Shown piece by piece: positions 3,346 through 21,109 of a stretch of 64,000 nt of DNA. The stretch's first letter is position 1. Each line of letters starts with the position of its first letter. Origin of the DNA: an uncultured virus (IMG/VR IMGVR_UViG_3300025751_000002) (Duplodnaviria > Heunggongvirae > Uroviricota > Caudoviricetes); IMG/VR virus record IMGVR_UViG_3300025751_000002; one strand, 5' to 3'. The translations under genes and the position numbers were made by a program. The notes under the pieces are model-generated. The model was not told where the DNA came from, made no database searches, and saw only the letters and a list, made by a program, of their open reading frames with translations.

Positions 3346-3372
3346 CGGGGGCTGCGCATCCGTAAAACGCAG
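3346..3372 (+). ncRNA. variant H-type pseudoknot leader (family A-like)
   Basis: CGGG/TCCG stem, CTGCG/CGCAG second stem, TAAAA loop, 23 nt before ATG 3396. Confidence 0.4.
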
Positions 3373-3395
3373 GCGTTGTTTACCAATTCAAGTCA

Positions 3396-3692
3396 ATGAC
3401 CAAGTTTACAATCAGCATTTCAGAGATGTCTGAACGAATCAGCCAAGCAAGTTTGGCACTTTTCGACGGTAAGAAGGTTAAGTTAGCTCCAGGAGTATTC
3501 CGCGCTAGCGGAATGACACCAGTCGAGTTAATGAAGGAAGTGAAAGCTTCGTTAGTGTGCCAGGAGACAGAGGAACATCTGTCAAAGTTTGGCATTAAAG
3601 CTGGCGAGCGAAAGCAACGTGAGTGGAAAGTGAACGTAACTAGAAGAGCAGAAGACAAGAGCTTCGTTCTTTCAGCTGTTTGCATTGGTTGA
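3396..3692 (+). CDS. hypothetical early protein
   Basis: 98-aa ORF preceded by a CAATTCAA-type leader. Confidence 0.65.
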   Translation: MTKFTISISEMSERISQASLALFDGKKVKLAPGVFRASGMTPVELMKEVKASLVCQETEEHLSKFGIKAGERKQREWKVNVTRRAEDKSFVLSAVCIG

Positions 3693-3882
3693 ATGTTATC
3701 TTTTCCCCTGGTTTCCAGGGGTTTACATAGCATTTACCCTTGAAATGTCAGCATTTCCTGACTTGCGCTCATTATTGGACATCTCCGCGCTACACCTTTC
3801 GCCAGAAAGAACAGTTTGTTGTTTAATCACTGCGTCAAGCAGTGAATTATACCAGAGTTAATACTGTTTTTAGTTAGGTATT

Positions 3883-3908
3883 ACGTCGAGCTGGACGTTA
3901 AACGTAGC
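3883..3908 (+). ncRNA. family A pseudoknot leader, copy 1
   Basis: CGTC-gagctg-GACG-TTAAAC-gtagc. Confidence 0.55.
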
Positions 3909-3930
3909 ACAATTCAATCGCATTTCACCA

Positions 3931-4077
3931 ATGAACATCGATCAGGCTAATCGTTTGGAACAGCTCATGCTTCAGTTTGCAGATCTTGTACGTGAAGTTG
4001 ATGATTCTCAACTGACTTATCTATTCGACGAGATGCTCAATTACATGGGCAACGAAGACAACTACGATTTCATCTGA
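3931..4077 (+). CDS. small acidic protein (48 aa, below ORF-track cutoff)
   Basis: MNIDQANRLEQLMLQFADLV...NYDFI*, bracketed by structured elements. Confidence 0.65.
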   Translation: MNIDQANRLEQLMLQFADLVREVDDSQLTYLFDEMLNYMGNEDNYDFI

Positions 4078-4138
4078 CCACAAGCGTGATGCCGGGGGAT
4101 CAAATCCCCTGGTCAGGTATTGCCACAATCCAGTGGCA
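4072..4138 (+). ncRNA. family C tRNA-like three-way junction plus hairpin, copy 1
   Basis: ATCTG/CAGGT closing stem, small hairpin, GCCGGGGG-ATCAAAT-CCCCTGGT arm, then TGCCAC/GTGGCA hairpin. Confidence 0.6.
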
Positions 4139-4155
4139 TCTATTCCATACAAACC

Positions 4156-4338
4156 ATGACTCAACGCATTGCATTTGTTGTTATTGTCGCTGCTACATTC
4201 ATGGGCATTGGTACTCAGATCACTATCCATAAGTTGGATGAGGCGACTGCAAAACAATGCTTAACACATGATTGGCCAGCAGACGCAGCTAACATCCACC
4301 TTGCGTGGTGTGCAGCTAACAACTACCCAACCAACTGA
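4156..4338 (+). CDS. small membrane-anchored Cys-pair protein (paralog 1)
   Basis: N-terminal hydrophobic helix, LDEATAKQC..HDWP...IH..WC motif. Confidence 0.7.
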   Translation: MTQRIAFVVIVAATFMGIGTQITIHKLDEATAKQCLTHDWPADAANIHLAWCAANNYPTN

Positions 4339-4402
4339 TCCGTTAAAGCGGGTGACCAGGTGCAAACCCTGGTCCAGTTTTTGCCCTCAGCGGAGATGGG
4401 CA
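4333..4402 (+). ncRNA. family C element, copy 2
   Basis: AACTG/CAGTT stem, TCCG/CGGG hairpin, GACCAGG-TGCAAAC-CCTGGTC arm, TGCCC/GGGCA hairpin. Confidence 0.6.
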
Positions 4403-4422
4403 CCGCACAACAGGAGTTTCCT

Positions 4423-4611
4423 GTGACTACTGCACACAAAGCCATCCTTATCTACGTTGTTATCAATGTAGTTGTTGGTATACCAGCTGCCTTGATTGGT
4501 GCTCGTCACCTCGATCAAGCAACAGCTAAGCAGTGCAAAGCGCACGACTGGCCTGCTGCTGCACATCAGATCCATATGGATTGGTGCGCAGATAACGGTT
4601 ACGACACCTGA
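4423..4611 (+). CDS. small membrane-anchored Cys-pair protein (paralog 2)
   Basis: GTG start after CAGGAG; LDQATAKQC..HDWP...IH..WC motif shared with 4156-4338. Confidence 0.7.
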   Translation: MTTAHKAILIYVVINVVVGIPAALIGARHLDQATAKQCKAHDWPAAAHQIHMDWCADNGYDT

Positions 4612-4672
4612 TTCGTTAAGGCGAGTGGTAGGGTTCAAACCCCTACCCAGGTATTGCCACAATCCCGTGGCA
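4606..4672 (+). ncRNA. family C element, copy 3
   Basis: ACCTG/CAGGT stem, TTCG/CGAG hairpin, GGTAGGG-TTCAAAC-CCCTACC arm, TGCCAC/GTGGCA hairpin. Confidence 0.6.
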
Positions 4673-4690
4673 TCTATTCAACTACAGCTC

Positions 4691-4954
4691 ATGGAACCCC
4701 TCATCTATCAACCCTTGGCTGAGAAAACGTATCGTGTCACATGGTACGGCAGTGAGAATCAAATCCATTTCGAGAAGTGGTGCCTAGTAGCAACACCTAA
4801 CTTCGATGGGCCACACGAGTGGATAGCAATTGACACTCGTACATTAATGGGAGGTTTGCCTACTGGTACCAAAGAACTTCACCAAGAGATGGAGGAGTAT
4901 TACAACTACTGCATCGTCATGGAGATGGACTACATCGAATCTCTTATCCACTAG
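4691..4954 (+). CDS. hypothetical protein
   Basis: ATG 4691 in ORF 4496-4954, directly downstream of element C3. Confidence 0.65.
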   Translation: MEPLIYQPLAEKTYRVTWYGSENQIHFEKWCLVATPNFDGPHEWIAIDTRTLMGGLPTGTKELHQEMEEYYNYCIVMEMDYIESLIH

Positions 4955-5044
4955 ATTCCTGCACTTAACCCTACTTACGTAAGTGAGTGGGTTTTCTGCA
5001 GGATTCACATCCTGCATCAACCAAATCAATTCACATGGAGAACC

Positions 5045-5407
5045 ATGAATTATCTCACTCTCATCCACCACCTCGACACAGCAGTACAACTGGTAAGTAA
5101 GTTGTATGCACTAGGTGGAGAACTCTTTAGCATCACAGCGATGCTCTGGTGCTTGAACATCATTGCTTCAATGATTAAGAAGACATACCAGGCAGGTTAT
5201 GCCATTGGTAGTTTCTATCGTCAGTATTTACATCAACACTGTAAGTGGGTAGCAATCCACTTGGTAGCACTCATTGTGTTGATCATCCAGATGTTCTGGG
5301 AAGGTTGCATGTACATTTACCAGAACAGACAGAAGTATTACAAGGTAGTTAACGATATCAGGAATGACATTGGCATGTTGTTTGCATATCGTTACCTCAT
5401 CAACTAA
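5045..5407 (+). CDS. hypothetical membrane protein
   Basis: 120 aa with two hydrophobic segments. Confidence 0.65.
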   Translation: MNYLTLIHHLDTAVQLVSKLYALGGELFSITAMLWCLNIIASMIKKTYQAGYAIGSFYRQYLHQHCKWVAIHLVALIVLIIQMFWEGCMYIYQNRQKYYKVVNDIRNDIGMLFAYRYLIN

Positions 5408-5410
5408 TCA

Positions 5411-5447
5411 CTGGGCATCCACATAATATGTGTGGTGTAAGCCCCAG
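5411..5447 (+). ncRNA. family B bulged-hairpin leader, copy 1
   Basis: CTGGG-CATCCAC...GTGGTG-TAAGC-CCCAG. Confidence 0.55.
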
Positions 5448-5475
5448 GGATTCCAACCACTGTTAAGTTCAACTT

Positions 5476-5739
5476 ATGCCAATCACGTTTGACAATTCAG
5501 AGCTAAAGCAAGCTTTATATCAATTCGACATCAATGAAGAGGATTATTACATCCTTTGTACTGAAAACACTGTCTATATTGTGTGGTGTACCCATGGCAC
5601 AGATGCTTTGGCGCATGCGCGCCAGAATGACTGTGTATCAGTTGAAATCAAAGGTGAATGGTTTTACGCCGAAGAACTTCATGATTTTTTCGAGCCCCCG
5701 CACTGGGTTTGTGCACGTTACATCCTTGCTACTAATTGA
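5476..5739 (+). CDS. hypothetical protein
   Basis: 87-aa ATG ORF. Confidence 0.6.
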   Translation: MPITFDNSELKQALYQFDINEEDYYILCTENTVYIVWCTHGTDALAHARQNDCVSVEIKGEWFYAEELHDFFEPPHWVCARYILATN

Positions 5740-5742
5740 ATC

Positions 5743-5952
5743 ATGACTATTTACCGCATGGGCAAAGGTTTTGTGACCATTGACTCTCATCCCGAGTCCA
5801 ATAAGACTCGATGGGATGATATTGCAGTGGCAGCACTTGCAATCATCCTTGCTGCACTATCAGTACCTGCATTGTTAGGTATTGATATCACCAAGCTCAA
5901 CCCACAACAAACCTCTTGTCATCATGAGCATTCACGTAGCGTTAATCTCTGA
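5743..5952 (+). CDS. small membrane protein
   Basis: hydrophobic segment IAVAALAIILAALSVPALL. Confidence 0.55.
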   Translation: MTIYRMGKGFVTIDSHPESNKTRWDDIAVAALAIILAALSVPALLGIDITKLNPQQTSCHHEHSRSVNL

Positions 5953-6151
5953 CTACGGTTCCGGTATTTGGCATGTTTATGGCGAAGCACAAAGCTTTGG
6001 TATGTTCGCATGTCAACTCGAAGACCTGGGTTGCCAGGTCATCGAGAATCAATCGGATGAATGGGAGGGATGCACCAAGGAAGAAGTAGAGGAGGATGCG
6101 TGCTCCATTGCACAACTCCTCGCTGATCCTAGGTTCACACCACATATGTAG
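5924..6151 (+). CDS. hypothetical acidic protein
   Basis: ATG 5924 within ORF 5882-6151. Confidence 0.55.
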   Translation: MSIHVALISDYGSGIWHVYGEAQSFGMFACQLEDLGCQVIENQSDEWEGCTKEEVEEDACSIAQLLADPRFTPHM

Positions 6152-6226
6152 CGTGTGACCTGACCTCAGACTCTATACCTAGTACTTGTCTTTGGATGAG
6201 TACTAGGTATTATTTCAACGCACCTA

Positions 6227-6718
6227 ATGCATCCCATGGAAGCACTCAGTCAAGTTGATGTTTCAAAACCAGATCACGTCAGTGTGATTACCAGGGATAA
6301 CAAGGTGACCATCTCAGTTACAAAGGATGGGCAATCAGTTACCCTAGGTTTCCAACTGTTGAAATCAGTTAGTAATCAAAGTAAGCAACCTGTTGAGAAG
6401 GTTGATCTACTCGACTTGTTCTCTTCCCCCACACCCCCGAAACAGCCGACACCACAGGCAAAGGCTGTTAAGGTAGATCCTCCAAACATTAGCCTACGGA
6501 AACGTATGGCTAGATCAAGGCATTATGTCAATGGTAATGCCAAGTTAGGAAGTAAGGAGGTGCGTGAAATCAAACAACTATTAGCCGATGAAGCATTCAT
6601 GAATGAGTATACAACTCGCAATGAAGGTTTCAAAGAACTGGCTAAGATTTATGGAGTGACAAGCACTTCCATATCCAATATTGATCGTGGTATTTCATGG
6701 AATAATATTACGATCTAA
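6227..6718 (+). CDS. protein with C-terminal helix-turn-helix DNA-binding domain
   Basis: NAKL..KEVREIK...KELAKIYGVTSTSISNIDRGISW. Confidence 0.65.
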   Translation: MHPMEALSQVDVSKPDHVSVITRDNKVTISVTKDGQSVTLGFQLLKSVSNQSKQPVEKVDLLDLFSSPTPPKQPTPQAKAVKVDPPNISLRKRMARSRHYVNGNAKLGSKEVREIKQLLADEAFMNEYTTRNEGFKELAKIYGVTSTSISNIDRGISWNNITI

Positions 6719-6786
6719 ACCCTGTTATATCTGAAGTATTGGTTGGCACGTAAGATTTGCCAATACATGCCAATGCTTCAGCAAAC

Positions 6787-6837
6787 ACTAGGCATCCACT
6801 ATTGAGAACTATTCTCATCTGTGGTGTAAGTCCTAGT
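6787..6837 (+). ncRNA. family B leader, copy 2
   Basis: ACTAGG-CATCCAC...GTGGTG-TAAGT-CCTAGT. Confidence 0.6.
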
Positions 6838-6866
6838 CCTTCCCAAACCCTACCTCAATTCAAACC

Positions 6867-7142
6867 ATGCAGGACCCTACCTTCATCGATGCACAACGCA
6901 ATGCTGATCTCTTGGATACCATGGCAGATTATGCATTCGAACTAGAAGAAGCAATGCGTGAAGCAGAGCTTACTGAAATCCATTGGGTGTGCGTCGGTTA
7001 TGACACACTCCAGATGAGGAATGATGCATTGGGTTACATGGCAGATACTGCATTACAAGCAGAAGATATCTGTCGTAAGCTTCACCCAAACTTTGACATC
7101 TACTACACCAAGCGTTGCGAAGATTGGGAAGCAACCAAATGA
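6867..7142 (+). CDS. hypothetical protein
   Basis: 91-aa ORF with CTCAATTCAAACC-ATG leader. Confidence 0.65.
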   Translation: MQDPTFIDAQRNADLLDTMADYAFELEEAMREAELTEIHWVCVGYDTLQMRNDALGYMADTALQAEDICRKLHPNFDIYYTKRCEDWEATK

Positions 7143-7233
7143 ATCAATCACTTTGGAAACAATGTTGGGATGACGGTAACATCGTCATCCTTTTTATTGC
7201 AATCACTTCACTCATCATCACGGAACTACTGTC

Positions 7234-7605
7234 ATGCTTCATCCAGAAACCCAAGCAATCGCCAAAGCAATCACTGGTTACGAACCGTTCGAAGGCGATG
7301 AATGCCTTGAGCAATACCAAGCTGAAATCAACTTCGATCCCAAAGGAGTTGTCCTCGGAAAGCTTGACACCTACCCCAAGAACGGATCAGTGTACCGCAC
7401 CAAAGGAACCCTTAGGCTCTACTGGAAACCAACCGGAGGTAACTACTCGCAAGAAGACAAGGATGCGCTCCAAGGATGGTACGACATCCCGTGCAACGAA
7501 GACATAGAGGAATGGACAATGGATAGCGTATGCTTTACACCAGGTGATGATGAGGTTGAACCCGATCATCCAGACAGCTGGCTATCGTTGCTCGGACTCA
7601 TCTAA
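7234..7605 (+). CDS. hypothetical protein
   Basis: 123 aa ending VEPDHPDSWLSLLGLI. Confidence 0.65.
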   Translation: MLHPETQAIAKAITGYEPFEGDECLEQYQAEINFDPKGVVLGKLDTYPKNGSVYRTKGTLRLYWKPTGGNYSQEDKDALQGWYDIPCNEDIEEWTMDSVCFTPGDDEVEPDHPDSWLSLLGLI

Positions 7606-7621
7606 CCAATCAACTGAACTT

Positions 7622-7849
7622 ATGCAACCTCCAATTGGATTAACTGTCAACCAACGTAATCTCTACATGTATTACTTAAATCACATGAAGAAACGTCCTG
7701 ACGAACCATGTTATGTACCGATGCTTCCAAACCCAAGTAGGTTGAAGTATTACATGATTGCTATCCAACGACTGGAGGAGCATAAACTAGTAGCAGTCGA
7801 TCGAACTGCTGGGCATTACACCAGGTGGATCTTAAAGAAGCCTGAGTAA
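7622..7849 (+). CDS. hypothetical protein, possible winged helix
   Basis: LTVNQRNLY...AIQRLEEHKLV pattern. Confidence 0.5.
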   Translation: MQPPIGLTVNQRNLYMYYLNHMKKRPDEPCYVPMLPNPSRLKYYMIAIQRLEEHKLVAVDRTAGHYTRWILKKPE

Positions 7850-7851
7850 AT

Positions 7852-7904
7852 GCATGGGCATCCACTATTGAGAACTATTCTCATCTGTGGTATAAGTCCC
7901 ATGC
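7852..7904 (+). ncRNA. family B leader, copy 3
   Basis: GCATGGG-CATCCAC...GTGGTA-TAAGT-CCCATGC; core nearly identical to copy 2. Confidence 0.6.
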
Positions 7905-7932
7905 TAACCGTACACCTTTTACAACACAGCTC

Positions 7933-8268
7933 ATGACCAACCAAAGCTTTCCTGAAGTGCCTCCCACTGGCGTTCCCTCTGACGCAGTTCTTAAAGTGAA
8001 CTGGGTCAAGAACGAGTACTACTACGTTCAACAAGCTTTGACATTACTGAAAGATGTCATTGCACGTGAATCCAAGAGGCATGAGATGGATCAATATCTC
8101 ACACCAAGTATGTATGCAATGCTTGATGATGAGATCATTCCAATGCTAGAGAATGAACTGGACTACGAACCAAGTGATGCAGATCTTGGTTACGGTAGTG
8201 AACCACCTATGACAATGGATGAGATGTATAAGAAAGCAGTCGAGGACAAGCGTATCGCCTGGTCGTAA
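7933..8268 (+). CDS. hypothetical protein
   Basis: 111-aa ATG ORF. Confidence 0.65.
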   Translation: MTNQSFPEVPPTGVPSDAVLKVNWVKNEYYYVQQALTLLKDVIARESKRHEMDQYLTPSMYAMLDDEIIPMLENELDYEPSDADLGYGSEPPMTMDEMYKKAVEDKRIAWS

Positions 8269-8363
8269 GCTTTCCCCCCAAACCCCCCTGGAAGAGAACC
8301 AGGGGGGAATCTTTTATTAGTATTAGTTAATTACTTTAATCAACCTTCAAATAATCTTTAATC

Positions 8364-8564
8364 ATGACTAAACCTAAATCCTCTATCAACTTTGATAGAA
8401 CCATTGCTGGATTCAATGTTACAGAACATGGTGTTCAATCGTATTCCAAATCAATCAAGCTTGGTCCTTTACAACTAACTATTAATGCCCGTGGCTCAGG
8501 TGTCCGTGGATCAATTAGTATTCCTGGCACAGGCCTGAGCAAACGGAACATCAAGTTGTTCTAA
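8364..8564 (+). CDS. DUF4236-like small protein
   Basis: SKSIKLGPLQLTIN...SISIPGTGLS motif. Confidence 0.55.
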   Translation: MTKPKSSINFDRTIAGFNVTEHGVQSYSKSIKLGPLQLTINARGSGVRGSISIPGTGLSKRNIKLF

Positions 8565-8589
8565 CCAAACATTAAGAGAATCTAAAGCA

Positions 8590-8616
8590 CTGGGCGTCCT
8601 TTGGTGTAAGTCCCAG
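8590..8616 (+). ncRNA. family B leader, copy 4 (minimal)
   Basis: CTGGG-CGTCC-TTT-GGTG-TAAGT-CCCAG. Confidence 0.6.
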
Positions 8617-8642
8617 CTTCTAACCCAACTCCAACTTCAATC

Positions 8643-8810
8643 ATGCTTAATTTGTTTGATCGTATCAACATTGCTTCCTGCGCTGTCAAACGCGCAGAGA
8701 AAGCAATCCTTAAAGAAGATACTTTCCATGGCGAGTGGGAAACTGCTCGTGCCTGGACTAGGTATCGTTGCTACATCTCACCCAAGTGTCAATTCGTGGA
8801 GTGCGACTGA
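8643..8810 (+). CDS. small hypothetical protein (55 aa, below track cutoff)
   Basis: MLNLFDRINIASC...FVECD*, TGATG-coupled to the next gene. Confidence 0.6.
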   Translation: MLNLFDRINIASCAVKRAEKAILKEDTFHGEWETARAWTRYRCYISPKCQFVECD

Positions 8811-9061
8811 TGACTGTACTTTCAATCGAAGAAACAATCGTATCTGACACCCATGTCAAAATCACAGCAATTGTTGACGAGATGCGCCTCGTTTATCGCG
8901 CAACTCACTTCGAGCCTGATGAGTGGGCTCCTGCATTGTGTCAAACAACTATTGAGCTGGATCCAGAGGAACCAATCCCTCTTGATGAAGATGGCTTCTG
9001 TGCCTATCTTGATCAGCTCGATCCTCAATGGCAACTACTAGACAAGGATGACATCGAATGA
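8810..9061 (+). CDS. hypothetical acidic protein
   Basis: ATG overlaps the upstream stop. Confidence 0.6.
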   Translation: MTVLSIEETIVSDTHVKITAIVDEMRLVYRATHFEPDEWAPALCQTTIELDPEEPIPLDEDGFCAYLDQLDPQWQLLDKDDIE

Positions 9062-9215
9062 TTGGATTCTCTCTTGAATTTAAGCGCTGGTACTTTGTGC
9101 TGCGTGGTCCCAAAGGTCGTGTTTATCTAGCTACTGGCTTTGCAAAGCGAATGCCAGTCATGACACCGACTGGTACATACACCATCGAACAGTACCAAGA
9201 CCAGTACTGATCCAC

Positions 9216-9243
9216 CGTCCTGGACATGACGTTAAACTGTCCA
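9216..9243 (+). ncRNA. family A pseudoknot leader, copy 2
   Basis: CGTC-c-TGGACA-t-GACG-TTAAAC-TGTCCA. Confidence 0.65.
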
Positions 9244-9265
9244 TTCCACTTACCCACTCAATTCA

Positions 9266-11050: not shown

Positions 11051-11269
11051 ATGACTGACTACACCGATGACCAACTACTTGCCATGGCCATGGCCAACAT
11101 TGGTGAGTACATCCATGGCAACTCACCTCAGTACATCTTGATCGAAGAAGATCCTCGCAATGAGGATGACTACGACACATGGGAGTACGGCACTGAACCG
11201 TTACCTCAAGATCATACTTGGCACTCCACATCAATTGATGTAGAGGTAAGTCCAAGTGAGGCCGACTAG
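11051..11269 (+). CDS. small acidic protein
   Basis: 72-aa ORF whose stop lies inside the tRNA 5' end. Confidence 0.6.
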   Translation: MTDYTDDQLLAMAMANIGEYIHGNSPQYILIEEDPRNEDDYDTWEYGTEPLPQDHTWHSTSIDVEVSPSEAD

Positions 11270-11336
11270 CCCAATTGGCAGAGGCAGCGGATTTAAGCTC
11301 CGCCAAGTCCCGGTTCGAATCCGGGGTCGGCTACCA
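11260..11336 (+). tRNA. trnL: tRNA-Leu(UAA), short variable loop, encoded CCA
   Basis: GGCCGAC/GTCGGCT acceptor stem, GCGGA-TTTAAGC-TCCGC anticodon arm, CCCGG-TTCGAAT-CCGGG T arm, A-CCA end. Confidence 0.9.
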
Positions 11337-11723: not shown

Positions 11724-11751
11724 CTGGGCATTCTTAAGATGTAAGTCCCAG
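11724..11751 (+). ncRNA. family B leader, copy 5
   Basis: CTGGG-CATT-cttaa-GATG-TAAGT-CCCAG. Confidence 0.6.
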
Positions 11752-13799: not shown

Positions 13800-13837
13800 A
13801 TTAAAAAGTAGATACTGATTCTTTCTTCAGTTCTTTC

Positions 13838-14166: not shown

Positions 14167-14276
14167 AGAGGGTGTGGCTCCACGGTAATCACGTCGCAGA
14201 GCCATTCGTTTACTAACCGAAGGAAGCTACAAAAACTTCGGTTCCCTCTGGACCTGACGTAGCTCTTCTTCGGTCC
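14167..14276 (+). ncRNA. candidate structured RNA with loop-loop pseudoknot
   Basis: four Watson-Crick stems plus AGCTAC/GTAGCT loop-loop complementarity. Confidence 0.55.
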
Positions 14277-14294
14277 TGTTACATTCTACTTGTT

Positions 14295-14322
14295 ACGTCC
14301 TGGGATGACGTTAAACTCATCC
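14295..14322 (+). ncRNA. family A pseudoknot leader, copy 3
   Basis: CGTC-ctgggat-GACG-TTAAAC-tcatcc. Confidence 0.6.
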
Positions 14323-14344
14323 GTATTCCAACTCAATTTCAACC

Positions 14345-15115
14345 ATGCAATTCCTCAAGTTCTCCAACGGCAACAGCAAGCTGACCGATCGCCTTATCTT
14401 TTCTCTGCCTGCTGGTTACACCTGTCCTCACGCTGGTGTCTGCAAAACATTTGCTGATCCAGATACTGGTAAGATTCGTGACCTGCCCCAGTACACAGGT
14501 GTTGAAGCAGCTTATGAGTTTCGTTGCTTTGCTGCACTATCAGAGAAGTATCCCAACGTACGCAACCTGCGTTGGCATAACTGGAATCTGATCCGTGAAT
14601 GTATTGCCAATCAATCTGGTGATGCACAAGCCTATGCATTGCGTGATCTCATCGACGAATCACTGACCATGTGTGCGCCCAAGAAATTGGTACGCATCCA
14701 TGAGTCAGGTGATTTCTGGACAGAGAACTACATGCGTGCTTGGGCAATGGTTGCCATGATGCGCCCATACCAAACGTTCTATGCTTACACCAAGTCACTT
14801 GGTATGTGGCTCAACTTGCAGGATCAGATCCCTGACAATATGAAGCTCACTGCATCTCATGGTGGGACACTTGATTACCTCATCCCTAACCATAAGGATG
14901 TATTCCAACGTATCTCATACGTTGTCTACACAGAAGAACAAGCAGCTGAGCTTGGCCTCGAGATTGACCATGATGACAGTCATTGCCTGGGTGATAAGCC
15001 CTTTGCATTGCTTGTCCATGGCTCCCAGAGGGCTGGATCTGACGCAAGCAAAGCGATCAGTGCACGCAAGAAGGCTGGCAAGTTTGTTGGTTACAACAAG
15101 AACAAAATGAAATAA
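14345..15115 (+). CDS. GP88-like (gene product 88) Cys-containing phage protein
   Basis: GNSKL..IFSLPAGYTCPHAGVC...CFA...VRIHESGDF...FYAYTKS. Confidence 0.7.
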   Translation: MQFLKFSNGNSKLTDRLIFSLPAGYTCPHAGVCKTFADPDTGKIRDLPQYTGVEAAYEFRCFAALSEKYPNVRNLRWHNWNLIRECIANQSGDAQAYALRDLIDESLTMCAPKKLVRIHESGDFWTENYMRAWAMVAMMRPYQTFYAYTKSLGMWLNLQDQIPDNMKLTASHGGTLDYLIPNHKDVFQRISYVVYTEEQAAELGLEIDHDDSHCLGDKPFALLVHGSQRAGSDASKAISARKKAGKFVGYNKNKMK

Positions 15116-15127
15116 CGCCTGATTTAC

Positions 15128-15175
15128 TTGCACATCAGATGGAATTCGGTAGTATGCAACCGTCTTCCATCTGAT
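15128..15175 (+). promoter_or_regulatory. sigma70-like promoter overlapped by an 11-bp inverted repeat
   Basis: TTGCAC-16 nt-TAGTAT; ATCAGATGGAA (15134) and TTCCATCTGAT (15165). Confidence 0.4.
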
Positions 15176-15177
15176 TT

Positions 15178-15411
15178 ATGAGTTACGTCATTGCTTGTTG
15201 GCTGCATGATGCACCACATGCCATTACTGCCAATAGTGAAACGAATCGATTTGATTTAATTCCACTAGAATCTGACGTGGCATTGAACAGGATTTTCTCG
15301 CATCCTTATCGCGCAGGTGCGCAACAAATCTTGTCCTGGATTAACAACAATGACAGTGAACTTGCAAGTAAAGAACTCTCAATTCAAGATGAGTCCCGCT
15401 TCCGCAAATGA
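15178..15411 (+). CDS. hypothetical protein
   Basis: 77-aa ATG ORF upstream of pol. Confidence 0.55.
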   Translation: MSYVIACWLHDAPHAITANSETNRFDLIPLESDVALNRIFSHPYRAGAQQILSWINNNDSELASKELSIQDESRFRK

Positions 15412-17212
15412 AAAGTATCTTGTCTTTGATTTGGAAAGCGATGGACTTTATGACAAAGTAACTAAAGTACATTGCATTGTCATCCATGACATTGGATCCA
15501 ACCAAACTTTTTCTTATGGGCCTGATTGCATTGCTGATGCTATTGCTCATCTGGCAACCGCTGATGTTTTGATTGGTCACAACATCATCTTCTATGACAT
15601 CCCAGTACTAAACAAACTTTACTCATTCACCACTACTTCAGAGATCATTGACACACTCATTTGCACACGACTCATCTGGCCCAAGGAAAAACTCTACGAG
15701 CTTGACCTTGAACAATATCCGGAAGTTCCACCGAACTTACGTGGATCCGCATCGCTTAAGACATGGGGATGGCGATTGGCCGATCATAAAATCGAATTCA
15801 AAGATTTCTCTGAATACTCCAGCGAAATGCTTGCATACTGCAAACAAGACGTTGCTGTTACTACAAAACTTTGGGATCATATCGCCAAGCAATCCTATCC
15901 ACCATCTGCGCTTAAAGTTGAACATGATTTTGCGCTCGCAATTAATAAACAAATTAGAGCAGGTGTTCCATTTGATGTGGATGCATGTCTTGATTTGGTG
16001 GATGATCTCAGAACAAAACAAAGCAAACTTGAAGCAGAATTAAAGGAAGTATTTCCACCTATCCAACACCACACTTGGTTTACCCCCAAGGTAAACAACA
16101 AAAATCGTGGTTATGTAAAAGGAGTTCCTTTTGAAAAGATCCGAACTGAACAATTCAATCCTGGATCTCGTCAACAGATTGTTGATCGACTTAAGCAAAA
16201 GTACGGATGGCAACCAGAGAAAACAACTGAAAAAGGAAATCCAATCCTTGATGATGAAGTTTTAGAAAAGCTCCCCTACCCAGAAGCAAAACCTCTGGCA
16301 GAGTACATGCTCGTCAAGAAACGCCTTGGTCAAATCGCTGATGGGAACAACGCTTGGCTCAAGCTGGTTAATCATGACAGCGGTCGCATGCACGGTGACG
16401 TTGTTACTAACGGCTGCGTCACTGGTCGCTGCGCTCATCGGTACCCAAACATGGGCCAGGTGCCAGCGGGTTATTCAGCTTATGGTAAGGAATGTCGTTC
16501 ATTGTTTCATGCGCCACAAGGATGGAACATGATTGGTATTGATGCCAAGGCATTGGAGTTGCGTTGCCTTGCAGGTTATCTTGCCTTATATGATGATGGT
16601 GAATATGCGCGTGTTGTAACTAATCCTGATATTGATATTCATGTTTATAATCAAGAAAGATTTGGTGTGGCCACCAGGGATATTAGTAAGCGTTTGCTTT
16701 ATGCCTGCCTATATGGGGCAGGTAATTTAAAAGCAGGAACAATTATTGAACCAAATGAAAAGGATGAGGACGTATTGCGTAAAGCAGGAAGAACTGCAAT
16801 CAATTCATTCATGCAAGGTGTACCAGCCCTTAAACAATTGAAAGAAAAAATTGATGACAACATTACACACCGGGGTTATCTTATTGGTCTTGATCGTCGC
16901 GTTCTTTATTGTCGCTCAGCTTTCAAGGGATTGAATGTGCTCCTGCAATCAGCAGGTGCAATCTTAATGAAACAAGTTGTTATTAATGTACATAACAATA
17001 TTAAACAAGTGCTTGGTCTTGAGCACGGCAATGGATGGGAACAAGTTTTAATGGTGCATGACGAGATTCAACTCGTATGTGCACCCAGGTACACAGAACA
17101 AATCAGGGAACAAGCAATGCTTGCTTTCCCACAGGCACAGGAGTTCTTTGGATTCCAGTGCGACATTGAAGGCGATTCTCGTGTTGGGACCAACTGGTCT
17201 GAAACACATTGA
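15389..17212 (+). CDS. polA: family A DNA polymerase (T7-like, 3'-5' exonuclease plus polymerase)
   Basis: ExoI DLESDG, ExoII GHNIIFYD, ExoIII YCKQD; motif A DAKALELR, B KRLLYACLYG, C VHDE. Confidence 0.95.
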   Translation: MSPASANEKYLVFDLESDGLYDKVTKVHCIVIHDIGSNQTFSYGPDCIADAIAHLATADVLIGHNIIFYDIPVLNKLYSFTTTSEIIDTLICTRLIWPKEKLYELDLEQYPEVPPNLRGSASLKTWGWRLADHKIEFKDFSEYSSEMLAYCKQDVAVTTKLWDHIAKQSYPPSALKVEHDFALAINKQIRAGVPFDVDACLDLVDDLRTKQSKLEAELKEVFPPIQHHTWFTPKVNNKNRGYVKGVPFEKIRTEQFNPGSRQQIVDRLKQKYGWQPEKTTEKGNPILDDEVLEKLPYPEAKPLAEYMLVKKRLGQIADGNNAWLKLVNHDSGRMHGDVVTNGCVTGRCAHRYPNMGQVPAGYSAYGKECRSLFHAPQGWNMIGIDAKALELRCLAGYLALYDDGEYARVVTNPDIDIHVYNQERFGVATRDISKRLLYACLYGAGNLKAGTIIEPNEKDEDVLRKAGRTAINSFMQGVPALKQLKEKIDDNITHRGYLIGLDRRVLYCRSAFKGLNVLLQSAGAILMKQVVINVHNNIKQVLGLEHGNGWEQVLMVHDEIQLVCAPRYTEQIREQAMLAFPQAQEFFGFQCDIEGDSRVGTNWSETH

Positions 17213-17217
17213 TTGCC

Positions 17218-17244
17218 CGTCCTAAGTATGACGTTAAACTGCTT
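17218..17244 (+). ncRNA. family A pseudoknot leader, copy 4
   Basis: CGTC-ct-AAGTA-t-GACG-TTAAAC-TGCTT. Confidence 0.65.
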
Positions 17245-17264
17245 TAACACTGCTTTTTTACGCA

Positions 17265-18086
17265 ATGATGAACTGCGCTTTTGTCTGTGCATCCCTCGCC
17301 GAAACACCACGTGAGGTATACACATCTGCAACTTCTTCTTCTTACTGTGCGGAAGTAATTCTTCCTAGGGTAAGTCAAAACAAATCTGAAACTCGAATCA
17401 AGTATCACGTCTATGGCAAAGCAGCAGAAAGATTCCTGCGACTCAAGCAGAACTCCCTCATCTATATCCATGGTGCCACCTTACGATTTGATGTTCAGAC
17501 CAAGACCCACTCCTTACATGCAGGTTCTCTTGCAGAAGTTACTGAATCATTCCCGATCTTCAATGATGTAATTCTTGCAGGACGTTGTATCAAAGATATT
17601 GACAAGGAAGATCCACGTGCTTTCAAGACAACTGCTGATGGCACAATGATTTGCTCGCAAACATTAAGTGTTTCCACTGGTAGAAACCAGTGTGATCTAT
17701 TTAATTTCTATGCAATCAATAATGCTAATGATCGTTTGAATCTTGCAGAACTTATCTGCAACATGACTAAGAAAGGAACAGAGATGACTCTTCGTGGTCG
17801 CCTTGTAACAGATGCATGGAATGATAAACAAACCAATGAGCGCCGTACAGCAACCAAGATTCAAATCAATAAGGTAAATATTGTACGGACTCGTGATGAG
17901 TCCAAAGATAAACCTGTGGTTTCACAAACAACTGTGGCTGCCGAAGGGAATGTAGCTAGCCTATGGGGAGGCAAAACGGTTGAGGATTCCCAGGATGCAT
18001 GGAACGAAGCATCTGGTGGTGGCTTGCCTGAACTTCCAGGTCAATACACCGCAGCTCCTGTTTTTGCATCGGACGAACCCTTCTGA
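17265..18086 (+). CDS. ssb: single-stranded DNA-binding protein, two tandem OB folds
   Basis: VYGKAAE...KQNSLIYIHG and KKGTEMTLRGRLVTDAWNDKQT; acidic DEPF C-terminal tip. Confidence 0.75.
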   Translation: MMNCAFVCASLAETPREVYTSATSSSYCAEVILPRVSQNKSETRIKYHVYGKAAERFLRLKQNSLIYIHGATLRFDVQTKTHSLHAGSLAEVTESFPIFNDVILAGRCIKDIDKEDPRAFKTTADGTMICSQTLSVSTGRNQCDLFNFYAINNANDRLNLAELICNMTKKGTEMTLRGRLVTDAWNDKQTNERRTATKIQINKVNIVRTRDESKDKPVVSQTTVAAEGNVASLWGGKTVEDSQDAWNEASGGGLPELPGQYTAAPVFASDEPF

Positions 18087-18107
18087 TCTCTTGGTACAAT
18101 AAGTACC

Positions 18108-18134
18108 CGTCCTGGGATGACGTTAAACTCATCC
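18108..18134 (+). ncRNA. family A pseudoknot leader, copy 5
   Basis: identical 27-mer to copy 3; TACAAT box ends 7 nt upstream. Confidence 0.6.
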
Positions 18135-18155
18135 ACTTTTCACTAAGAACAAACC

Positions 18156-19172
18156 ATGACTTCTTCTCCGACCAAAACCAAGAAAGATGCACTGGCTACT
18201 CGTAGCCTTGATTCGTTTAAACTTTTTGCAAGCAAAGAGTTTATTTCTGGTTACCAGAACTTGGTAACAATTCAACCACTGAATAAATCAAAAGTACGTG
18301 GTTGGTTTGTACGTAAATCAGACCTTGATGTCTGTGGATGGACAGCAACGGAAGATGACTTTACCCCAGGTTCTGTCATCTGGAATTACAAGCAAACCTT
18401 TGGTATGGCTCCCAATACTTCTATTGAAGAGGGATTGAATTTTACTGAGCCTCGCATTCAAGTATTGTTGCGTTCACCTTTGATGGTGGAAGAAACTACT
18501 GGTATGCGCCAAGTAATTGGTACGTTTGAAGATGAAGAAGTAAAAGCAATCTTTGATAATGATAAGGTTGCTTCTGATCTTGCCAATAGCAAAGGCGAGA
18601 TGTACAAGCGTAAGTACAGTGTACGTACAAAGTATTTGATCTTTATCCTGACCAAGGATAATAAGCGTGCTCACAAAAATCCTATTGTGCTTACACTTAA
18701 AGGATTGAATGGTACTGATGTATCAGATAAAGTAAAGCTTTATGAGAAAGAGATGTCTAAGTGCTTAAGCAAAGCACTGGACTCTGAGATCCCACTTGCA
18801 TTCAACGAAAAGTTCTATGCAACCACAGTGTTTACACCTGTGCTTGCAAATGAAATGCGTGGTGCAAATAACGTTGAGATCTGTGCAATTGAATCCTTTT
18901 CGATTCCAGATTACTCAACGCAAGAAGCTGCAATTGAATCGTTGAATAACCTTTCAATTCCAGACGAGGATCGTGCATCTACTTGGAAGTTCCAAGAGTT
19001 GTTTGATGATTACATCAATCAACATGCAAAGCAAGATGCCAAGAAACTCAATGGTTCTTATGGCATCAAAGAAGGATTGAACATTCTTCCTGTCTCACGT
19101 AGCAACGACGCAGTTGATGTGAAGGTGCTTCCAGCACGTGATGAAATGACAGGGGAAGATTCATTCCTCTGA
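18156..19172 (+). CDS. conserved cyanobacterial/cyanophage protein (DUF5895-like)
   Basis: 338 aa in the replication cluster; family assignment from memory only. Confidence 0.45.
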   Translation: MTSSPTKTKKDALATRSLDSFKLFASKEFISGYQNLVTIQPLNKSKVRGWFVRKSDLDVCGWTATEDDFTPGSVIWNYKQTFGMAPNTSIEEGLNFTEPRIQVLLRSPLMVEETTGMRQVIGTFEDEEVKAIFDNDKVASDLANSKGEMYKRKYSVRTKYLIFILTKDNKRAHKNPIVLTLKGLNGTDVSDKVKLYEKEMSKCLSKALDSEIPLAFNEKFYATTVFTPVLANEMRGANNVEICAIESFSIPDYSTQEAAIESLNNLSIPDEDRASTWKFQELFDDYINQHAKQDAKKLNGSYGIKEGLNILPVSRSNDAVDVKVLPARDEMTGEDSFL

Positions 19173-19430
19173 TTTAGTTTTAACTTCTGGGTTAGCCAAG
19201 TCATCTCCATCAATAGAAATATTGTTGAAGATAAACATGTCTTGTACTAACCCACGAATTACACCTTGACGTTGAGTGGCGATCTGCGCAAGCAAGGTCG
19301 CCATTTCTTTTAAGGCACCAACTGAATTACAATCTTCAATGGAACGTTTAATCTTTTCAAGCCAAAACTTATCATCAAGCGTTGGTTCAATTTGGAATTT
19401 GGTTAGAGGCACGTACTTTATCTCTTCCAT
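19161..19430 (-). CDS. divergent NblA-like helical hairpin protein
   Basis: PTLDDKFWLEKIKRSI...LKEMATLLAQIATQRQGVIRGLV follows the NblA L.L...F spacing. Confidence 0.45.
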   Translation of the reverse strand: MEEIKYVPLTKFQIEPTLDDKFWLEKIKRSIEDCNSVGALKEMATLLAQIATQRQGVIRGLVQDMFIFNNISIDGDDLANPEVKTKSEE

Positions 19431-19512
19431 AAAGTATTAAGTTGTTACAAAACATTCTAACCAATGCATTAAACTCACACTAAATCTTTTGTTTCTGTTA
19501 AGGATTACTCAC

Positions 19513-19704
19513 ATGAAACCCGAACAAAAAGCTGCTGTCAAGGTTGGTGGTACCACAGCTCTGGTTACTGCTGGCCTTGCTCTTCTGTTGCCTTCTCCTG
19601 CCGCTTGGGCTGCAGTGATCTACGGATCGTATAGAATGGCAAAAGGCGCCTACCAACGCGCTAAGGAAGACCGGCTCCAGCAGGACTACTGGCTGGACAA
19701 CTGA
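19513..19704 (+). CDS. small membrane protein
   Basis: hydrophobic central segment. Confidence 0.55.
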   Translation: MKPEQKAAVKVGGTTALVTAGLALLLPSPAAWAAVIYGSYRMAKGAYQRAKEDRLQQDYWLDN

Positions 19705-19734
19705 TCCAACTTCAACCCAACCCAAGTCCAACTC

Positions 19735-20679
19735 ATGTCAAACCAACAGGTAACCGAGCTTGATGCTGCGCAAAAATTTATTTACACACGTACCAACATA
19801 CGTCGTGCCTTCAATGATTTTGATGACACTGACATTGCTGACATCTATCTTCAAGGCGAAGATTGTCTGATCTTACGTCGTGATGGTAGCCAGCAAACAT
19901 ACAACAGAGAACCCATCAAGGTTGCATATACCAGCTATACTCATCGCTTAAAAGATTTCTTTTCTTACCTTGGTCCTAACTATCGCGGTCCTAGTGTATG
20001 GCATAACAATGCTTATGTTCTTTTTAAAGGATGGTACTACTCCCATGCGTTAGGTCACCTTACACCTAATGCAAGATTGCAAGCTGCATGGGCGGATCGT
20101 TTCATTCATCTGAACGATGTACAAAAAGTAACTGCTCTATTGCAATCAGATCAAGCAGACCTTGGTCATCTCATTGCACCAGATGGTTTGCGTGCACAAG
20201 ATATGCCCATTGATTTCAACAGCAGCTTAGATACTGTTGAAGAAGTCAAGCCAATCTTTGGTGAGCCATGGTGTTCTTGTGGTTCGTATCAACAACAACT
20301 TAATAACATCTCTTCTTTTTCCCAGGAGATTGAAGGCTTCAAGCCATGGTGCATCCATCTGTCCTGGTTCAATAAGTACCGCGAGATGCTATCCAAACGT
20401 ACGGAAGCACGTAACCAAGCACCGAACGGCACACCAAGTAAGTGTGTTGCATGGTGGTACCAGCCGCCTTCTGACCATCTATCTGATGGTTTATTCAAGG
20501 TGCTCTACACAACATATGGTGCTCAAGCACCTGTCAGCCACTGGCGTAACTACAAACCAGATGAGCATTTCACACAAAACCATGCATGGGATTTGTTCTT
20601 CAATATGATGGAGGCGGGATACGTACCATTCCCTGGTCGCTCACTTCCACAACTTCAATCTGTTGTTAAAAAGCAATGA
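19735..20679 (+). CDS. SWIM zinc-finger protein
   Basis: WCSCGSY...WCIHL (CxC...CxH). Confidence 0.65.
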   Translation: MSNQQVTELDAAQKFIYTRTNIRRAFNDFDDTDIADIYLQGEDCLILRRDGSQQTYNREPIKVAYTSYTHRLKDFFSYLGPNYRGPSVWHNNAYVLFKGWYYSHALGHLTPNARLQAAWADRFIHLNDVQKVTALLQSDQADLGHLIAPDGLRAQDMPIDFNSSLDTVEEVKPIFGEPWCSCGSYQQQLNNISSFSQEIEGFKPWCIHLSWFNKYREMLSKRTEARNQAPNGTPSKCVAWWYQPPSDHLSDGLFKVLYTTYGAQAPVSHWRNYKPDEHFTQNHAWDLFFNMMEAGYVPFPGRSLPQLQSVVKKQ

Positions 20680-20942
20680 CAACCAAACCAATGGAACTTT
20701 CTGAACTCAATCTCCTGCTTGCCAGCAATAAACTCATTGCTGAGATCACCGACAAAGAAGATGGTGATGGCATTGAAATTAAATTGAACTGGGATGACAA
20801 TGATCCAGATCTAAAGCGTTGGGACAAGATGTCAAAGAAAAAGAAGTGTGAGTTGTTTGAAGCACTTCTTTACAAAATAGTTGAACCAAGGGTTGACGAG
20901 CCTGGTAAGCTAGCACTGTCCGCCAAGGACATCAAGCTCTGA
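20676..20942 (+). CDS. hypothetical protein
   Basis: 88 aa, ATGA-coupled. Confidence 0.6.
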   Translation: MTTKPMELSELNLLLASNKLIAEITDKEDGDGIEIKLNWDDNDPDLKRWDKMSKKKKCELFEALLYKIVEPRVDEPGKLALSAKDIKL

Positions 20943-20947
20943 CGAGA

Positions 20948-20975
20948 CGTCCTAAGCATGACGATAAACTGCTTA
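20948..20975 (+). ncRNA. family A pseudoknot leader, copy 6
   Basis: CGTC-c-TAAGCA-t-GACG-ATAAAC-TGCTTA. Confidence 0.65.
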
Positions 20976-20995
20976 TCCAAAACAACTTTAATTTC

Positions 20996-21109
20996 ATGTT
21001 TGAATCATTCATTTCTTTTTGTGTTCCAGTAATTAAAGATTTGCTTTGGGCAGCAGCAGGCATGCTGCTGACCTATGCACTCAACAAATTCCAAACTCAA
21101 TTCAACTAG
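20996..21109 (+). CDS. 37-aa hydrophobic peptide (below track cutoff)
   Basis: MFESFISFCVPVIKDLLWAAAGMLLTYALNKFQTQFN*, at the standard distance from the pseudoknot. Confidence 0.55.
   Translation: MFESFISFCVPVIKDLLWAAAGMLLTYALNKFQTQFN

Follow-up and report, generated by a model that had tools for sequence, protein, structure and literature searches.

Why should one gene after another in the early arm of a phage be preceded by a compact RNA fold that stands at a nearly constant distance from the start codon? The question is raised by the rightward early and replication genes of an uncultured virus of the Caudoviricetes (IMG/VR record IMGVR_UViG_3300025751_000002), of which we analyzed a stretch of 64,000 nucleotides (nt), hereafter the window. 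The original prediction, made from the letters of this DNA alone, held that about 15 genes are headed by folds of three families, A, B and C, each followed by a G-poor spacer and a start codon, and it offered protection of processed messages, recruitment of ribosomes and recombination between shared leaders as possible roles. We count 14 plus-strand open reading frames (ORFs) and one tRNA headed in this manner between 3.9 and 21 kb (family A six times, B five times and C three times), with an additional, sixth copy of B inside a coding sequence (CDS), before the tRNA. This set of structured RNA leader modules is real, conserved and largely undescribed. As to what the modules do, we favor, with a confidence that stops slightly short of an even chance, an analogy-based reading in which they are modular 5′ protective RNA caps joined to leaders without a Shine–Dalgarno (SD) sequence, shielding individual cistrons from 5′-to-3′ decay, while the repeats would also serve as recombination joints.

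Covarying RNA folds precede early and replication genes

Elements were sought by inspecting the 100 nt upstream of every plus-strand gene and by repeat finding, and were compared over 26 loci around DNA polymerase homologues (71–100% amino acid identity), extra upstream stretches and the record of Synechococcus phage S-EIV1; loci and contigs are cited by L numbers where needed. Family A is an H-type pseudoknot with the layout CGUC-CU-N5-U-GACG-UUAAAC-N5′. In family B an outer stem encloses GGCAU, an inner hairpin of variable size and UGUAAGU, ahead of its own closing strand. Family C begins at the upstream UGA and consists of a mini-hairpin (CCG UUAAAG CGG), a 7-base-pair (bp) hairpin whose loop is T-loop-like, and either a pseudoknot or another hairpin. 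The family A core GACGWTAAAC occurs six times in the window, always on the plus strand, where 0.11 copies are expected and none of 100 shuffles reaches six; the 3′ core of family B, TRTAAGYCC, occurs five times, all on the plus strand between 5.4 and 11.8 kb (1.35 expected; three of 100 shuffles reach five). Covariance models for A and B, built partly from the window's own copies, found six matches each in the 64-kb window, all on the plus strand, and the next B match, on the minus strand, had E = 0.076.

Covariation across homologous phages had been set as a test of these folds, and compensatory changes were found in all three families. Across 69 distinct copies, family A is 97.7% paired, and seven of its nine pairs have changed in a compensatory manner; none of 500 shuffles reaches the observed score, and slid controls are 19–56% paired. 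Besides CGUC/GACG, its stem 1 occurs as GGAC/GUCC (five copies), GGUC/GACC (three), UGUC/GACA (two) and AGUC/GACU (one). When pairing was required in stem 2 only, all 12 members with a stem 1 other than CGUC, an L1 of CU and a YWAAAC linker had stem 1 fully paired as well, one of them as UGUC/GACG closed by a G·U pair, which supports both helices of the pseudoknot. The sense strand carries 35 G·U pairs versus four A·C, so it is the sense strand that folds, and in oriented loci the gene strand holds 66 of the 67 A-pattern matches.

Family B (30 sequences) has 87% of its cells paired, with compensatory changes in five of seven outer-stem and all three inner pairs and a score that none of 500 shuffles reaches; among the IMG/VR copies listed, its two halves are separated by inserts of 3–28 nt. 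Even the copy inside the coding sequence (B6) changes in relatives from ACUUGG/CCAAGU to ACCUGG/CCAGGU, with varied inner stems, one side of the change being synonymous and the other non-synonymous. For family C (14 sequences), 92.9% of cells are paired and eight of ten pairs are compensatory; when more copies are taken in, 90 of the 92 distinct ones listed have the 7-bp stem paired over its full length, by means of 27 different stem sequences, and the second module of subtype II is a pseudoknot, paired in all 42 copies via four different pair sets. Loop and linker bases are invariant and stems covary. Because the stems compensate, A has an excess of G·U pairs on the sense strand and B tolerates inserts, these comparisons support the view that A, B and C are RNA-level folds rather than plain DNA motifs.

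The searches of Rfam and of cyanophages that had been recommended gave no Rfam family, and A, B and C were found to recur in IMG/VR relatives and in S-EIV1. With Rfam 15 at gathering score the tRNA was the only match in the whole window, and with E up to 5 over positions 3000–22000 no match overlapped any A, B or C element. The description of C as tRNA-like had to be abandoned: ARAGORN finds the real tRNA only and the Rfam tRNA model is silent on C at E up to 5, so a T-loop-like 7-nt loop (UGCAAAC or UUCAAAC) is its only tRNA-like trait. Two other known folds were considered for A and rejected. The preQ1-I riboswitch has a similar topology; there is no Rfam match, the single junction base makes no evident pocket for a ligand, and genes of diverse kinds follow the fold. 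The pistol ribozyme, whose 5′ half A resembles, likewise gave no Rfam match, and the G-poor spacer is unable to form the remaining helices.

Leader elements of the window

Judged by its sequence, the source phage is an uncultured freshwater relative of S-EIV1, which gave the only megablast match among named phages (76.8% identity over 816 nt, in the DNA polymerase gene); a record near-identical to the window is present in IMG/VR. The rightward genes at 3.4–23.5 kb comprise many small ORFs as well as PcfJ-like, ThyX, GP88-family, family A DNA polymerase, SSB, DUF5895 and Gp157/Gam-like genes. Among them lie the following elements:

3352..3372, plus strand: family D hairpin, CUGCG / 11-nt loop CAUCCGUAAAA / CGCAG, with GGGGG in front; 23 nt before ATG 3396
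3883..3908, plus strand: A1, variant A pseudoknot with stem 1 ACGUC/GACGU, 6-nt loop, UAAAC and stem 2 partner GUAGC; spacer 22 nt, ATG 3931
4078..4137, plus strand: C1, 7-bp hairpin with loop AUCAAAU, then hairpin GCCAC..GUGGC; spacer 18 nt, ATG 4156
4336..4406, plus strand: C2, UGA; P0 CCG UUAAAG CGG; P1 GACCAGG UGCAAAC CCUGGUC; subtype II pseudoknot GCCC..GCGG AGAU GGGC A CCGC; spacer 16 nt with AGGAG, start GTG 4423
4609..4671, plus strand: C3, UGA; P0 UCG UUAAGG CGA; P1 GGUAGGG UUCAAAC CCCUACC; hairpin GCCAC..GUGGC; spacer 19 nt, ATG 4691
5411..5447, plus strand: B1, outer stem CUGGG/CCCAG, GGCAU, inner hairpin CCACA..UGUGG, UGUAAGC; spacer 28 nt, ATG 5476
6787..6837, plus strand: B2, outer stem ACUAGG/CCUAGU, extra hairpin nested in the inner stem; spacer 29 nt, ATG 6867
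7853..7903, plus strand: B3, outer stem CAUGGG/CCCAUG; spacer 29 nt, ATG 7933
8590..8616, plus strand: B4, minimal B, CUGGG CGU CC UUU GG UGUAAGU CCCAG; spacer 26 nt, ATG 8643
9216..9242, plus strand: A2, pseudoknot CGUC CU GGACA U GACG UUAAAC UGUCC; upstream stop 9208–9210 ends 5 nt short of it; spacer 23 nt, ATG 9266 (PcfJ-like, 577 aa)
11216..11257, plus strand: B6, B-type fold in the 3′ end of CDS 11051–11269; ends 2 nt before the tRNA 5′ end
11260..11336, plus strand: tRNA-Leu(UAA) in a leader slot; stop 11267–11269 of the upstream CDS lies inside the tRNA
11724..11751, plus strand: B5, CUGGG CAU UCUUAAGA UGUAAGU CCCAG; spacer 28 nt, ATG 11780
14296..14322, plus strand: A3, pseudoknot 22 nt before ATG 14345 (GP88 family), preceded by a non-coding stretch of about 500 nt
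17218..17244, plus strand: A4, pseudoknot with stem 2 AAGUA/UGCUU; polA stop 5 nt upstream; spacer 20 nt, ATG 17265 (SSB)
18108..18134, plus strand: A5, pseudoknot 21 nt before ATG 18156 (DUF5895)
20948..20974, plus strand: A6, pseudoknot with linker AUAAAC; stop 20940–20942 ends 5 nt upstream; spacer 20 nt, ATG 20995

The variant A1 matched the A model at E = 0.003, and its subtype is found again in L006 and L410. C1 begins directly after the stop at 4075–4077 and has a folding z of −3.2; B6 is the best B-model match in the window (54.6 bits). In all related loci that extend as far as SSB, the SSB orthologue stands behind a copy of A, and ATG 20995, behind A6, opens a conserved 37-aa ORF that starts MFE...

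The anatomy given in the original prediction was right; its set of elements was short by the B copy inside a CDS and by a fourth kind of hairpin (3352–3372), family D, which heads the first gene of the rightward early arm (ATG 3396). This hairpin lies 22–24 nt before the first ATG in L033, L037, L038, L039 and L041 and farther upstream in S-EIV1, and its stem is invariant across relatives and so yields no covariation evidence. The idea of a phage-wide programme was not supported, the elements being confined to the early and replication arm.

Likeness of family A to coremin

Family A resembles coremin, or xrRNA-C, the Xrn1-resistant RNA of plant and fungal RNA viruses, beny- and cucumoviruses among them; coremin is built of a 4-bp hairpin C1G2U3C4/G9A10C11G12 (hp1) with a loop YGAD or YGNNAD, a spacer U13U14A15A16A17C18U19A20C21 and a second hairpin (hp2) (PMC6546385, PMC10520033, PMC10321173). 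According to the same sources, hp1 has 3–5 bp; its loop-closing pair must be pyrimidine–purine (C-G and U-A work, G-C abolishes function), pairs 2 and 3 can be swapped and pair 4 is dispensable. Within the spacer, UUAAACUAC, A15–A17, C18, U19 and A20 are described as essential, as are a G at loop position 2 and, for Xrn1 resistance, hp2 directly downstream. In the Watson–Crick type of coremin, loop bases 6–8 are reported to pair with spacer bases 18–20, including A7-U19, and natural coremin-like RNAs also include loops of 7–8 nt.

Stem 1 of A has the sequence of coremin hp1, CGUC/GACG with 4 bp, and its closing pair is C-G in 68 of 69 copies, in keeping with the pyrimidine–purine rule. The fourth pair, dispensable in coremin, is the most variable in A (CG 58, GC 8, UA 2, AU 1), and the lower pairs swap with compensation. 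The first loop base, a pyrimidine in coremin, is C in A, and the penultimate loop A fits as well. Both have the linker UUAAACU, of which AAAC is invariant in A and the following U more than 90% conserved. A loop-to-linker pseudoknot is common to both, and A has A-U at the position of coremin A7-U19 in 68 of 69 copies; the equivalent of position 20 is mostly G, and A in some copies, and pairs with the loop, as positions 18–20 do in Watson–Crick-type coremin. Coremin and A both stand in untranslated or intergenic viral RNA, sometimes in tandem, and two A-type pseudoknots 8 nt apart in L092 recall the tandem coremin motifs of some plant viruses. There are also differences: stem 2 of A has five Watson–Crick or wobble pairs and reaches 3 nt past the coremin spacer, and A belongs to mRNAs of DNA phages in cells without Xrn1, where its nuclease resistance is putative.

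Coremin is described as stalling both Xrn1 and scanning ribosomes and as stimulating −1 frameshifting. Flaviviral xrRNA (exoribonuclease-resistant RNA) is similarly reported to block the bacterial RNase J1, which suggests that such folds are general mechanical blocks. By analogy, then, we read A as a coremin-like mechanical roadblock and not as a proven member of the coremin family.

Extended to all the elements, this analogy leads to the protective reading that we favor. The elements would act in cis, as RNA modules of the polycistronic transcripts that host RNA polymerase makes of the early and replication genes, and each would have two parts: a compact, mechanically robust fold (the A pseudoknot, the two-helix internal-loop hairpin of B, the hairpin-plus-pseudoknot of C, or a tRNA) and a G-poor, non-pairing leader of about 16–29 nt running up to a usually SD-less start codon. 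The fold would act as a directional roadblock, at which 5′-to-3′ decay, by RNase J exonuclease or by RNase E scanning in a 5′-end-dependent manner, halts after an attack on the upstream transcript, and the downstream cistron would survive with its 5′ end shielded and with open RNA on which ribosomes can land. Nuclease resistance and the identity of the enzymes are here what we infer, and protection, which the likeness of A to coremin supports indirectly, is the best supported of the ideas in the original prediction.

Several points weigh against this reading. The loop of A, C-U/C-NNN-Y-A-U/A/C, has 8 nt and U or C, never G, at position 2, where coremin requires G, and A has no hp2, the sequence after stem 2 being G-poor and predicted to be unpaired up to the ATG. 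For B and C we know of no nuclease-resistant relative. Under nearest-neighbor folding the stability of A and B is unremarkable (z −0.28 to +0.79), pseudoknots lying outside that model, and the copies behind the covariation counts are paralogues and orthologues together and hence non-independent events. C abuts a stop codon, and the terminating ribosome must therefore open its first helix; the simple 5′ cap model leaves this placement unexplained, and equally does not predict B6, which lies in a CDS and 2 nt before the tRNA. Finally, cyanobacteria encode RNase J, and its presence in the host of this phage is presumed.

Spacing to start codons and stop codons

Spacers in the window measure 20–23 nt for A (stem 2 end to ATG), 26–29 nt for B (outer stem to ATG) and 16–19 nt for C, family-specific lengths of the kind that the original prediction had described. 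They are predicted to be unpaired, and they are indeed poor in G, with a G fraction of 0.00–0.10 at all of the 14 headed genes but 4423, where it is 0.30. The starts behind them usually lack an SD, as had been proposed; this turned out to be a feature of the whole window, since SD-less starts are the rule there, most late genes without folds included, and GGAG-type SD sequences are present at the C-headed GTG 4423 and at gene 5045.

The placement of elements at or just after an upstream stop was borne out in the larger sets. In 61 distinct copies of A, with ORFs taken at 45 or more open codons, the upstream stop ends 5 nt before stem 1 in 30, 6 nt in seven and 7 nt in three; in three others (−8, −12 and −20) an open frame of 46–111 codons ends inside A, and these we take for chance frames. 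The end of UAAAC lies 24–28 nt before the start codon in 48 of the 61. For B, the outer stem is 22–30 nt before the ATG in 21 of 27 copies and begins −1 to 9 nt after a stop in 14 of 27, and a stop triplet stands directly 5′ of C in 89 of the 92 copies listed. Constant spacing in homologues thus holds within the clade and breaks down outside it: in unrelated phages A lies 14–54 nt from the next start, often with an SD present, and B likewise falls within that range from starts that often bear an SD, while the gap of 5–7 nt after the stop is kept at A in L190, L192, L200 and L206. Given the 14–54-nt range in unrelated phages, it is the leaders of this clade, and not the fold, that account for the fixed distance to the start. 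Recoding at the upstream stop was considered and rejected, since no slippery sequence precedes the stops of A2, A4 and A6 and the downstream ORF is out of frame at A2.

About 5 nt separate the A-site codon from the mRNA entrance of the ribosome, and about 20 nt is roughly the stretch that a 30S subunit covers upstream of a start. Under the protective reading, the tight spacing would be mainly a packing limit: ribosomes that terminate at the upstream stop would set the smallest gap on that side (5 nt, for A), and 30S subunits that initiate at the next start the smallest gap on the other (about 20 nt). In a genome with little room between genes, folds that have to remain folded would collect at just these distances.

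The same distances can be read as those of translation-initiation modules, in which the fold docks on the 30S platform or protein S1, or insulates the leader, and the measured distance drives SD-independent initiation. The narrow and family-specific spacing and the G-poor spacers, predicted to be unpaired, fit this account, as does the fact that the foldless genes of the early arm mostly overlap or abut the upstream gene (8810, 9058, 12511, 12825, 13134), which would be expected if a fold and leader were needed for de novo initiation only. We nevertheless consider it unlikely, since the window's late genes manage SD-less starts without folds, the unrelated phages place A and B at variable distances from starts that often have an SD, one copy of B heads a tRNA and no ORF, and coremin-type folds block ribosomes and do not recruit them.

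Leader exchange and the tRNA slot

Different leaders head the same gene in different genomes. In the window, L023 and L030 the GP88 orthologue stands behind A; in L011 and L018 its leader is the GGAC/GUCC variant of A, and in L013 it is B. L013 also has B at the gene after SSB, where other genomes have A. Within the window, B2 and B3 are 98% identical over 43 nt, A3 and A5 100% over 27 nt, and C1 and C3 88% over 43 nt, whereas orthologous copies differ, a pattern that suggests gene conversion.

The tRNA occupies a leader slot, as had been noticed from the sequence: its 3′ flank at 11329–11363 (spacer plus ATGCAA) is 97% identical over 35 nt to the B5 spacer and the start of gene 11780 (11751–11785). 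Contigs of three RNA libraries join 11342 to 11786/7, so that the tRNA stands directly before gene 11780 and the AT-rich gene 11423–11719 is absent; these contigs may derive from DNA, and the RNA-library material (three metatranscriptome libraries and one unlabelled run) consists of low-depth contigs only, from which no starts, ends or strand can be read. Gene 11423–11719, which lies between these 35-nt direct repeats, resembles a cassette that was inserted recently together with an AT-rich region of its own upstream. These sequence comparisons support A, B, C and a tRNA as occupants of interchangeable slots. Near-identical copies within one genome, together with an indel flanked by repeated leaders, argue that the leaders are recombination joints, and the idea of shared leaders as recombination points is further strengthened by the leader swaps between orthologues; the repeated modules would thus double as joints for recombination and gene exchange. 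In the IMG/VR contig L410 the leader is composite: behind C's first two helices, an A1-type pseudoknot takes the place of C's second hairpin.

At the tRNA itself, the UAG stop of CDS 11051–11269 forms tRNA positions 8–10, a layout that is the same in relatives, and an RNase P cut at the tRNA 5′ end would therefore strip the stop from the upstream message.

A tRNA in such a slot, as a substrate of RNase P and RNase Z, also gives some weight to processing or punctuation, in which an endonuclease (RNase E, RNase P, RNase III or another) cuts beside the fold and the fold guards the 3′ end of the upstream message. The folds abut upstream stop codons, one B fold is separated from the 5′ end of the tRNA by 2 nt, and C has its T-loop-like 7-nt loop. 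We hold this to be quite unlikely: RNase III needs about 20 bp, and the helices here are far shorter; neither ARAGORN nor the Rfam tRNA model sees C as tRNA-like; and the resemblance to coremin points to a 5′-to-3′ block and not to a 3′ stabilizer. The analogy to T7 early RNase III sites fails on the same ground of helix length. Those sites are likewise structured elements between the cistrons of a phage early transcript, being interrupted duplexes of about 20 bp that are cut by RNase III and are thought to yield stable monocistronic messages, whereas A is a 9-bp pseudoknot and minimal B a 5-bp outer stem around a 17-nt interior.

Distribution among phages

Covariance-model searches found family A in all 22 related records, at one to six copies and on one strand per record, and family B is present in 14 of the 22, including all six of those at least 90% complete. 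The isolate S-EIV1 carries, on its gene strand, five A, two B and a CDS-embedded B, and two C, none of which is annotated. Pattern scans of IMG/VR, whose totals are lower bounds, place A in at least 145 stretches, B in at least 134 and C in at least 121. Among the 81 A matches listed, stem 2 is paired 5/5 in 66 and 4/5 in 12, and among the 75 distinct B copies listed the outer stem extends at least 2 bp past the conserved GG/CC in 69. In genomes of bacteria and archaea a stricter A pattern has 35 matches, of which 26 are fully paired (5/5); they lie mostly in Firmicutes and also in a phytoplasma, Saccharibacteria, Anaerolineales and a Bacteroidetes metagenome-assembled genome; these matches are presumably prophages. 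In Firmicute-type phages A precedes scaffold-like genes, and B occurs between a 159-aa ORF and a major-capsid-like gene, 45–51 nt before the latter. Genes of these kinds are highly expressed, and such use elsewhere counts in favor of the protective reading.

Some distant copies have company. In L200, L206 and L207 (record G026, a phage of about 77 kb), A is followed by a second conserved box (CUCCCACCUAAACUUUUUACGG-like), with an SD and ATG 40–42 nt downstream. In three stretches from unrelated phages (L379, L380 and L383), a B copy right after a stop heads a non-coding stretch of about 500 nt with GGC-rich repeats of about 11-nt period and repeated long hairpins. Among named phage records, a 36-nt B copy had two weak, chance-level BLAST matches only; our literature searches turned up no paper with both GGCAUCC and GUAAGUCC of family B, and, in a search mostly without subscription papers and judged for xrRNA by title or abstract, no natural element of the coremin, xrRNA or exoribonuclease-resistant type reported in phages.

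This wide distribution bears on a further possibility, that the elements are operators for a trans-acting phage or host RNA-binding protein, acting in repression of a regulon, as T4 RegA and gp32 do, or in antitermination, as at nut and put, with three families standing for three regulatory classes. Invariant loop and linker bases within covarying stems would suit a protein site, the families cluster along the arm (C at 4.1–4.7 kb, B at 5.4–11.8 kb, A mostly at 9–21 kb), and the arm holds several intrinsic terminators, two of them just 8 nt before a start codon. That A and B occur so widely, in many phages and prophages that are unrelated and whose hosts are distant, speaks against a protein partner specific to one clade; one orthologous gene carries A or B depending on the genome, and no candidate binding protein was identified in our analysis; we therefore regard operators as improbable.

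The reading that fares worst, and that we consider highly improbable, is that of DNA-level promoters or operators (for example, promoters of hairpin form used by an RNA polymerase of the phage, or sites recognized by a host polymerase that has been modified), to which the strand-specific position upstream of genes and, by our own reading, the fit of UAAACU in A to a TAnnnT −10 pattern would lend themselves, and against which stand the pairing kept by compensatory changes, the sense-strand G·U excess, the inserts of 3–28 nt between the halves of B, the failure to find an RNA polymerase among the 47 larger ORFs of the window (38 aa or more) and a depletion of consensus sigma-70 sites in the early arm (18 found, 36.8 expected). 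A Syn5-type promoter was considered for B in particular, whose 5′ half (GGGCAUCC plus tetraloop plus GG) resembles the 15-bp promoter of cyanophage Syn5, with transcripts starting at GG; it was rejected on the variable inserts, on the lack of B's 3′ half and outer stem in natural Syn5 promoters, and on the T7-type RNA polymerase (PF00940), which was not found in any of five near-complete relatives or in S-EIV1, while the Syn5 control gave E = 4e-77.

Related systems and implications

The elements share features with two other sets of known signals. Bacterial 5′ mRNA stabilizers are 5′-terminal hairpins or stalled ribosomes that block RNase J1 or RNase E, and they are single and gene-specific. 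The role proposed for the present folds, that of a 5′-proximal obstacle shielding downstream RNA, is the same; here, in contrast, several conserved fold families are reused many times per genome and are common to distant phages. The promoter-early stem-loop (PeSL) cassettes of T4-type phages, which had been offered as an analogy, are described as a strong sigma-70-like promoter plus a terminator stem-loop, that is, as DNA and transcription signals (PMC2839356). Like the leaders studied here, they are short repeated regulatory cassettes between small early genes, and recombination between their copies shuffles genes (PMC2839356). The analogy therefore stands for gene shuffling and not for promoter and terminator content: the present elements have RNA-type covariation and a fixed distance to the start codon, and there is no consensus promoter and no U tract in A, B or C.

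A bolder claim, possible but on balance improbable, is that A, B, C and the tRNA form a kit of interchangeable roadblocks used by phages, with one member sharing the coremin fold. They would be the first exoribonuclease-resistant RNAs to occur naturally among bacteria and their phages, and they would set the half-lives of individual messages within polycistronic transcripts and provide portable joints for gene exchange between phages of many bacterial phyla. Should the folds stop bacterial 5′-to-3′ decay, exoribonuclease-resistant RNAs would be a general viral device and not a speciality of eukaryotic RNA viruses, and cistron-level control of mRNA stability in phages could be tested in culture with S-EIV1 on Synechococcus PCCC-A2c. 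The three families, which are small (27–70 nt) and have no entry in Rfam, abound in phage contigs of aquatic and gut origin, so that their description should improve the annotation of gene starts and transcript architecture. Leader modules of this kind would also explain the swapping of small early genes between related cyanophages, and they may prove useful as compact mRNA-stabilizing parts for cyanobacterial and Gram-positive synthetic biology.

Other features of the early arm

Intrinsic-terminator-like hairpins were found at 3080, 7167, 8283, 11013, 12165 and 13838. Those at 11013–11042 and 12165–12182 are strong, have U tracts and lie 8 nt before ATGs 11051 and 12191; either these two genes can be expressed by read-through only, or the hairpins may themselves serve as leader folds. 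The hairpin at 7167–7191, GGGAUGACG..CGUCAUCC, repeats the sequence of stems 2 and 1 as found in A3 and A5. The one at 13838–13872 has 14 bp and falls in the stretch of about 500 nt between ThyX and A3 (13800–14295), which holds no convincing ORF and otherwise gave sub-threshold Rfam noise. Finally, the genes at 4156–4338 and 4423–4611 encode paralogous small membrane proteins with the common motif ..ATAKQC..HDWPA.., each behind its own C leader, and are a tandem duplication of gene plus leader.

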